From a virus (lineage: Duplodnaviria; Heunggongvirae; Uroviricota; Caudoviricetes), in the IMG/VR virus record IMGVR_UViG_3300008107_000202: 64,000 nt of DNA; one strand, given 5' to 3'. The position numbers and the translations under genes were made by a program. How positions within the stretch are numbered: position 1 is the stretch's first letter; the number at the start of each line of letters is the position of its first letter. Below, one piece after another: positions 480 through 568 of this stretch. The notes beneath the pieces were generated by a model. That model was not told where the DNA came from. It did no database searches and saw only the letters and a list, made by a program, of their open reading frames with translations.

Positions 480-568
480 GGAGACACCAGTGGGATTCTA
501 ACCCACGCGGGATACGATCCACCAGATTTGCAATCCGGCACCTTCGGACGCTCGGTCATAGTGTCTCC
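480..568 (-). tRNA. Class-II (long variable arm, Ser-like D-arm GACCGAGCGTCCGAAGGTG) tRNA whose anticodon loop reads TTGCAAA (GCA, Cys); 3 unpaired nt between T-stem and acceptor
   Basis: Terminal 8-bp stem GGAGACAC/GTGTCTCC. T-arm GTGGG-TTAGAAT-CCCAC. Anticodon stem CCGGA/TCTGG. The D-arm is nearly identical to E. coli tRNA-Ser. Confidence 0.35.

Follow-up and report, generated by a model that had tools for sequence, protein, structure and literature searches.

We analysed a 64,000-nt stretch of DNA (hereafter the window) from the tailed-phage record IMGVR_UViG_3300008107_000202 of IMG/VR, and in particular a gene at positions 480 to 565 of its minus strand that encodes a tRNA with the anticodon GCA and a long variable arm. 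We consider it likely, with a probability of about 0.75, that this gene specifies a functional phage tRNA-Cys that reads UGU and UGC and is predicted to be charged with cysteine. It is probably an ordinary worker of unusual shape. On the comparisons described below, it looks unlike a mutated serine tRNA and is best filed as a tRNA-Cys with class-II architecture, one of a widespread class-II tRNA-Cys family that is apparently undescribed. Textbooks place tRNA-Cys in class I and, to our knowledge, reviews and textbooks restrict the long variable arm to the Leu, Ser, bacterial Tyr and selenocysteine (Sec) tRNAs. The family would depart from that restriction, as its members combine a 7/5 cloverleaf (7-bp acceptor stem, 5-bp T stem) and the identity marks of Cys with a long arm. 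A paper from 2016 also explicitly assigns tRNA-Cys to class I (PMC4810241).

Fold and conservation of the tRNA-Cys gene

ARAGORN called a tRNA-Cys(gca) at 480–565 on the minus strand, and the Rfam tRNA model RF00005 matched 482–565 with 46.9 bits (E=1e-7). Both programs bear out a sequence-only reading of this DNA in so far as it had described a long variable region and the anticodon loop UUGCAAA (GCA), here placed on the minus strand. The molecule is a normal 7/5 cloverleaf with a 15-nt variable arm, and its parts are as follows.

480–565, minus strand: tRNA-Cys(GCA) gene, with G1 at 565 and U73 at 482 (ARAGORN, RF00005 and the covariance model R1 described below)
559–565, minus strand: acceptor 5′ strand GACACUA (G1–A7), whose partner is UGGUGUC at 483–489
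540–556, minus strand: D arm ACC-GAGCGUCCGAA-GGU, with a 3-bp stem, G13.A22, G15 and an 11-nt loop
522–538, minus strand: anticodon arm CCGGA-UUGCAAA-UCUGG, with the anticodon GCA at 531–529 followed by A37 and A38
507–521, minus strand: variable arm U-GGAU-CGU-AUCC-CGC (1 nt, 4 bp, 3-nt loop, 3 nt), whose last base is C48
490–506, minus strand: T arm GUGGG-UUAGAAU-CCCAC, with A56 at 499 in place of the near-universal C56
482, minus strand: discriminator U73, read from the sequence
566–571, minus strand: 5′ leader UUAGGA, complementary to U73 plus the trailer, UCCUAA (482–477)

The seven acceptor pairs (G1:C72, A2:U71, C3:G70, A4:U69, C5:G68, U6.G67 and A7:U66) all covary among relatives. The acceptor 3′ strand UGGUGUC abuts the T stem without a gap, the linkers are U8 and G9 before the D arm and G26 after it, and the D-loop positions 18 and 19 are G18 and U19 (549–548), not GG. 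The 7/5 register is favoured because of the ARAGORN call and the Rfam match and because of covariation among nine relatives, in which 96.1% of the pair cells hold standard pairs against 66.6% in shuffles, 16 of the 20 pairs show changes on both sides, and slid registers leave only 32–49% of the cells paired. The sequence-only reading had let the tRNA span 480–568; its start is really G565, and bases 566–568 (GGA) belong to the 5′ leader. The acceptor GGAGACA/UGUCUCC of that longer span (480–568) is a 3-nt shift, which we rejected as it would separate the acceptor from the D stem by 5 nt and the T from the acceptor stem by 3 nt; such a pairing is possible because the leader UUAGGA complements U73 plus the trailer UCCUAA. 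The three unpaired nucleotides formerly noted before the acceptor 3′ strand are an artefact, as these bases belong to the acceptor stem, and the sole run of three unpaired bases is CGC at 509–507, between the variable stem and the T stem. An 8/4 or 9/3 fold, as in selC* tRNAs and allo-tRNAs, is incompatible with the observed, covarying stems. We also discarded a small same-strand open reading frame (ORF) over the tRNA (AGGAG 5 nt before an ATG at 559–557; 33 open codons in the window), which meets a TGA after 13 codons in the relative L186 introduced below.

Nine contigs of the phage population (98.6–100% identical overall, several metagenomes) carry identical copies of the gene. A diverged syntenic relative, L186, came from the metagenome scan described below and has the order Val-Asn-Cys-(Glu-like)-Gly-His-Gly-Pro. 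Its Cys gene carries compensatory changes at two pairs (A4:U69 to G4:C69 and C27:G43 to U27:A43), next to a change of G29.U41 to G29:C41, one D-loop change and one new A31-C39 mismatch. It retains U73 and the T loop as well as the UCCU end and the leader/trailer helix. The variable arm of L186 is wholly different yet still a hairpin (GAC-GAAA-GUC), the rest of the tRNA being about 90% identical; between these two genes the arm diverges much faster than the remaining tRNA. Whereas C56 occurs in 604 of the 619 unique tRNAs of our set, the window tRNA has A56 (499), with which U19 (548) can pair, so that the tertiary 19:56 contact is kept as U:A. This compensated pair is a signature of selection on the folded L-shape and not of decay. 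Most of the other phage tRNAs among the 15 of 619 without C56 also covary at 19:56, as A:U or C:G; such swaps were seen in the Cys tRNA of L014, the His tRNA of L026, the Pro, Gln and Gly tRNAs of L020, and the Arg, Val, Trp and Cys tRNAs of L032.

At the 3′ end, the DNA encodes C74 and C75 (481–480) but, with T at position 479, not A76 (3′ end UCCU). This is the only confidently predicted tRNA of the cluster without a fully encoded CCA. The leader and the U73-plus-trailer segment pair perfectly over 6 bp and, in the predicted fold, lengthen the acceptor helix of the precursor to 13 bp. The 6-bp helix is identical in L186 and absent from the other long-arm Cys relatives that were inspected. 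Together with the UCCU end, it may affect RNase P or 3′-end processing.

A family of long-arm GCA tRNAs

We define the family by a 7/5 cloverleaf, a D arm of the form NCCGAG-NG-NNN-GAAGGN, GCA, U73, and a short variable hairpin with about 3 nt after it, the last of which is C48; the window tRNA has all of these features. The covariance model R1, built from 12 members with the window sequence excluded, gave the window tRNA 73.1 bits, within the family range of 54–101 (median 81), and the phage's own tRNA-Ser(GCU) 37.9. Among the matches listed, the family has about 96 distinct sequences, which come from many habitats and mostly from phage-type tRNA arrays. The same architecture was found on 6 IMG/VR contigs and on about 20 contigs of GTDB species-representative genomes, whose carriers include Armatimonadota, Phycisphaerae, Chloroflexota, Longimicrobium, Akkermansiaceae and several beta- and gammaproteobacterial metagenome-assembled genomes (MAGs).

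A metagenome scan for long-arm GCA tRNAs returned at least 120 contigs. The matches listed contain 84 unique sequences, of which 77 have U73 (92%), five A73 and one G73 (L208), with one further sequence mis-registered; 76 of these 77 U73 members have C48 as the last variable base, and GNRA tetraloops dominate. Across the family the acceptor pairs 2:71 to 7:66 vary freely, and U73 is therefore selectively kept. A rumen group that combines GCA with a short arm (L130, L152, L170, L174, L176 and L227) has A73, the Tyr/Leu-type discriminator.

At 101 of the 118 loci among the matches listed, at least two other tRNAs lie within 2 kb (median six), and the long-arm GCA tRNA is the only Cys tRNA in 23 of the 24 listed arrays with at least 14 isotypes. 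Four arrays carry all 20 isotypes, including Ser and Tyr, and in these the Cys slot is filled by the long-arm GCA tRNA only. An enrichment of long-arm over short-loop Cys tRNAs in arrays was not demonstrable, as short-loop Microcoleus versions occur in arrays too. The gene also occurs alone. In Phycisphaerae, nearly identical long-arm Cys genes without an encoded CCA are solitary in three species-level genomes (L059 at 2141–2226, L077 and L104), and that of L059 adjoins MoxR and NuoH genes on a 420-kb contig. This solitary chromosomal setting suggests the cell's own tRNA-Cys, and the long-arm gene may be the native one of this Phycisphaerae lineage.

We found no description of a 7/5 class-II tRNA-Cys in the full-text literature, a search whose coverage excludes most subscription journals, so that this absence is no proof. 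The only described long-arm tRNA-Cys that we found, and the closest described relative in kind, is the selC* tRNA-Cys (PMC5389517), which has a long variable arm, U73 and GCA in common with the window tRNA and is cysteinylated by cysteinyl-tRNA synthetase (CysRS). The selC* tRNA imitates tRNA-Sec: its fold is 8/4 with a bulge, and its acceptor and anticodon stems are longer, whereas the window tRNA is 7/5 with a 3-bp D stem; the former occurs in anaerobic bacteria beside selB* and cysS*, and the latter in a phage tRNA cluster without a link to these, to other sel genes or to toxin-antitoxin loci. Membership of the window tRNA in the selC*/allo-tRNA group is ruled out by its 7-bp acceptor stem, 5-bp T stem and phage setting.

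Probable cysteine identity and the alternatives

U73 (482) and GCA (531–529), the main CysRS determinants, are both present in the window tRNA. These are the two major determinants of cysteinylation, and U73 by itself is enough to make minihelices accept Cys (PMC9976931). Because both are present, because U73 is kept family-wide, and because CysRS charges the long-arm selC* tRNA-Cys, we infer a Cys identity. We propose that the tRNA would be transcribed within a phage cluster of more than 20 tRNAs, that RNase P would cut its 5′ end and its 3′ end would be trimmed, and that the host CCA-adding enzyme would supply the missing A76. Host CysRS would then charge it by way of U73 and the GCA anticodon, and the product, a normal tRNA-Cys, would supply UGY decoding during infection. 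Class I synthetases approach the acceptor stem from the minor-groove side (PMC7373986), and CysRS, which belongs to class I, should tolerate the extra arm. Seryl-tRNA synthetase (SerRS), which recognises how large the arm is and how it is oriented, in combination with acceptor-stem pairs (PMC9976931, PMC4666401), should not use this short, Tyr-like arm: it is predicted to reject the window tRNA because the arm geometry resembles tRNA-Tyr rather than tRNA-Ser, and the arm and the acceptor-stem pairs are both wrong for it. 

The sequence-only reading had instead seen a Ser-like body that might insert serine at Cys codons. In the form we weighed, SerRS would charge the tRNA through its long variable arm, alone or in competition with CysRS, and serine would appear at some UGY codons; we regard this as very unlikely. 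The likeness of the D arm ACCGAGCGUCCGAAGGU to that of tRNA-Ser, on which that reading drew, is genuine but not diagnostic of Ser, as the same arm is normal in class-I tRNA-Cys. When one genome per bacterial species was scanned for the query D arm followed by a YUGCAAA loop, 77 loci were returned, and most are ordinary tRNA-Cys with variable loops of 5–6 nt (Microcoleus, Acidimicrobiales, spirochaetes). With this canonical class-I subtype, whose D arm is GCCGAG-YGG-NNGAAGGC, the window tRNA has in common GCA, U73, a 3-bp D stem with G13.A22, G15, a large D loop, A36-A37-A38 and the 7/5 acceptor/T geometry. The two differ in that the class-I form has a 5–6 nt variable loop and G19:C56, and the window tRNA a 15-nt hairpin and U19:A56. 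A 4–6 nt variable loop is what defines class I, and the 15-nt region with its 4-bp hairpin lies outside that definition.

The window tRNA resembles tRNA-Ser and the anticodon-shifted Ser tRNAs (allo-tRNAs; nematode nev-tRNAs, PMC3333845) in its long variable arm, its D arm and C11:G24, and a single substitution separates its anticodon from GCU. Indeed, the long variable arm, C11:G24, G30:C40, C72 and R4:Y69 all belong to the listed bacterial Ser determinants (PMC9976931), and U73 is natural in some tRNA-Ser. It lacks G2:C71 and G73, however, and its arm is short and differently spaced. Position 2:71 is A2:U71 in the window tRNA but G2:C71, an experimentally defined bacterial Ser determinant (PMC9976931), in all 104 unique tRNA-Ser from about 240 fetched loci; only 40 of the 96 listed long-arm Cys relatives have G:C there. 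The variable stems of tRNA-Ser are mostly 5–7 bp, with 0–1 unpaired 3′ nucleotides in 39 of 43 and three in none, while the 1-nt/4-bp/3-nt/3-nt arm of the window tRNA is the modal geometry of the long-arm Cys relatives. Himeno et al. reportedly showed in 1990 that a short-arm tRNA-Tyr becomes a SerRS substrate only when the arm is lengthened and G73 is introduced.

The overall sequence gives a similar picture. We built home-made isotype profile hidden Markov models (not tRNAscan-SE), with the anticodon masked and with the window phage and its orthologue left out. On the Ser profile the window tRNA scored 17.1 bits, below the 5th percentile of true Ser tRNAs (24.4; median 49.5), and this score is free of the D-arm selection bias discussed below. 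Its other scores were 42.7 (class-II Cys), 27.9 (class-I Cys) and 7.9 (Leu), with no match to Tyr. The isotype call of Ser that the sequence-only reading had allowed for was thus not obtained with these profiles. The body of the tRNA is only 59–61% identical to the Ser(UGA) and Ser(GCU) tRNAs of the same phage, both of which have G73 and long Ser-type arms; recent derivation from the latter was rejected on this identity and on the R1 score given above. Serine at Cys codons is also at odds with the use of the family in complete arrays that carry Ser tRNAs as well, and with the phage's UGY codons (about 1.4% of all), which specify zinc-ligand cysteines in its dCMP deaminase (PCEHC) and HNH enzymes (CxxC). 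That a genuine Ser body with GCA can arise is shown by L208, our positive control, in which a GGAGAGA acceptor and G73 go with a 6-bp arm that leaves one 3′ nucleotide unpaired, and which scores 50.7 bits on the Ser profile. The L208 tRNA (212–300) is itself a candidate Ser-at-Cys missense tRNA.

Several observations weigh against the assignment as a working tRNA-Cys. U73 also occurs in 29 of the 104 tRNA-Ser, making it weak alone as a mark against SerRS, and serine was judged the likely amino acid of allo-tRNAs with U73 (PMC5389517). Some circularity affects the two Cys profiles, as their training sequences were in part picked by the shared D-arm pattern, and a 12-sequence Cys profile made without that search pattern was uninformative, giving the window tRNA 11.6 bits and Ser tRNAs a median of 15.5. 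The tertiary core is G15:C48 and G13.A22 rather than the E. coli-type G15:G48 and A13:A22, although that core is not universal among tRNA-Cys (PMC9976931, PMC13433404). A76 is encoded by nearly all other tRNAs of the cluster. Finally, Limnohabitans phage DC31 has no Cys tRNA, and relatives found through DUF2828 carry class-I Cys tRNAs, which indicates that this phage lineage does not need the extra arm.

A nonfunctional or decaying gene, which the sequence-only reading had raised as a pseudogene, seems to us extremely improbable. The UCCU end in place of UCCA, A56 and U19, which depart from near-universal bases, the variable-region insertion, a degenerate Gly-like remnant about 100 nt away (~310–380), and the more distant relatives without this form of the gene could all be taken as traces of decay. 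Yet all stems are intact, U19 and A56 compensate each other as do other 19:56 swaps in phage tRNAs, and the gene, identical in nine contigs and the only Cys tRNA of a near-complete set, shows compensatory changes and a kept arm hairpin in L186. In that closest diverged relative it is present and intact, and not absent or degenerate as the sequence-only reading had contemplated. As for the 3′ end, phage tRNA genes without an encoded CCA are matured normally, as in T4.

The extra arm of the proposed tRNA-Cys may be neutral, or it may be part of an arms race with tRNA-targeting defences. The specific proposal that the armed phage tRNA-Cys evades a host nuclease and keeps translation going, or acts as a decoy, would add a reason for the arm and would not replace the tRNA-Cys assignment; we judge it quite improbable. 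Phage tRNAs evade tRNA-targeting defences (PMC10264068, PMC11464382), Septu cleaves the variable loop of tRNA-Tyr (PMC13096335), and an anti-defence role has been proposed for tRNA arrays (PMC12803027). Two RNA-ligase-like proteins, including an Rnl1-like one, are encoded by this phage; its Met, Thr and Ile tRNAs, like many class-I isotypes of other phage arrays, also have extra arms; and a comparison of the window with L186 shows far faster divergence in the variable arm than in the remainder of the tRNA. All of this support is purely circumstantial, however, and the anticodon loop is an ordinary UUGCAAA. No tRNA-Cys-targeting nuclease of the relevant hosts is known from this analysis, and the same architecture is apparently in chromosomal use in Phycisphaerae, an argument that the arm can be neutral. 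A wider idea, which we hold to be unlikely, is an 'armoured tRNA' strategy. GNRA-capped hairpins repeatedly grafted on class-I tRNAs (Cys above all, and Met, Ile, Thr, Asn, Trp and His), together with re-paired 19:56 contacts, would block defence nucleases while host synthetases still bind; or a phage factor would use these features to tell phage from host tRNAs. If this were true, class-II tRNA-Cys would be the most common member of such a counter-defence.

The phage's armed class-I isotypes lie at 4465–4554 (minus strand), 6870–6959 (minus strand) and 4095–4183 of the same-population contig L108, and are Met(CAU), Thr(UGU) and Ile(GAU). The arm of Met(CAU) is A-GGUA-GCAA-UAUC-CCC and that of Ile(GAU) is C-UAGC-GAAA-GCUA-CAUC. 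Armed Asn, Glu, Asp, Val, Trp, His, Lys, Arg and Gly tRNAs were seen in other phage arrays. Armed class-I phage tRNAs and swapped 19:56 elbows form a broader pattern that may be relevant to tRNA-targeting defences.

As to origin, a candidate source of the window tRNA type is tRNA-Tyr, by a change of U35 to C35. The arm of bacterial tRNA-Tyr, with a 3–4 bp stem, a 3–5 nt loop and 2–3 unpaired nucleotides before the T stem, is like that of the window tRNA, and in L005 and L003 the Cys bodies are 77–84% identical to those of the neighbouring Tyr tRNAs, their nearest relatives there. On the other hand, tRNA-Tyr has A73 and GUA where the window tRNA has U73 and C35, and the window tRNA does not match the Tyr profile. 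Body identity is similar to Tyr (0.66) and Ser (0.64), and R1 gives nearly the same median score to Tyr (56) and Ser (54) tRNAs. For the class-II Cys family as a whole the median scores are 22 on the Tyr profile, 35 on Ser and 40 on class-I Cys. The body profile is nearest to short-loop Cys and the arm geometry nearest to Tyr.

If the family is charged with cysteine, CysRS tolerates an extra arm in nature, the geometry of the arm and not its presence keeps SerRS away, and natural scaffolds for tRNA engineering are at hand. For annotation, a tRNA with a long arm and an anticodon other than Ser, Leu or Tyr should not automatically be taken for a mistranslating or dead tRNA.

The phage, its tRNA cluster and neighbouring features

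The window is part of a tailed-phage genome, with genes for the large terminase (TerL), portal, major capsid protein, DNA polymerase and primase-helicase, and also for NAMPT, dCMP deaminase and several HNH endonucleases. TerL is 74% identical to that of Limnohabitans phage DC31, followed by a Curvibacter phage and Pakpunavirus phages of Pseudomonas; these affinities point to a host that is probably a freshwater betaproteobacterium. Megablast against GenBank phages gave no orthologue, only a 190-nt match at 74%, and a 340-aa ORF had no match in IMG/VR. The cluster to which the tRNA-Cys belongs is as follows.

40–6959, minus strand: co-oriented tRNA cluster, with 13 tRNAs in the window by ARAGORN and extending beyond the window start

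In contigs L108–L117 of the same population, Pro, Ser(UGA), Ser(GCU), Asp and Phe follow beyond the window start, and Ile(GAU) and Leu(UAG) are present as well, bringing the total to at least 21 tRNAs, among which the tRNA-Cys is the only one with GCA. It is flanked by tRNA-Asn and a Glu-like tRNA, and there are HNH genes close by. This Glu-like element (382–456, minus strand) has a tRNA-Glu(UUC)-like cloverleaf with an A73-CCA end, G8 and the T loop GGCAGAA against UUCRANN, and it was missed by ARAGORN and by Rfam (E<=1). Its L186 counterpart is 100% identical, in contrast to the diverged tRNA-Cys beside it, which points to strong constraint. Either the Glu tRNA that the phage otherwise lacks or a tRNA-like RNA of different function could be encoded here. 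The degenerate tRNA-like remnant at ~310–380 (minus strand) aligns with the Gly(UCC) of L186, and its anticodon and T stems are broken; we take it for a probable decayed duplicate, the intact Gly(UCC) lying beside it at 228–306.

At ~1900–1903 the window lacks 100–434 nt compared with nine same-population contigs, including almost the whole tRNA-Ile(GAU), an apparent strain-level deletion or insertion. Between tRNA-Val and the HNH gene at 665–1165 there is a sub-threshold match to the Rfam int-alpA RNA (1181–1246, minus strand; 33.9 bits against a gathering threshold of 35.8, E=4.6e-4). The two RNA-ligase-like ORFs lie at 12121–13182 (plus strand; PF09414 and the PHA02142 OB domain) and at 22880–23731 (plus strand; PF09511, T4 Rnl1-like), and their presence suggests a capacity for tRNA repair alongside the large tRNA set. 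Inside the tRNA cluster, 4659–6050 (minus strand) encodes a 463-aa DUF2828/DUF7788 protein (PHROG 'RNA-binding protein'), whose homologues in other phages and in giant-virus MAGs also adjoin genes for tRNA or transfer-messenger RNA (tmRNA).

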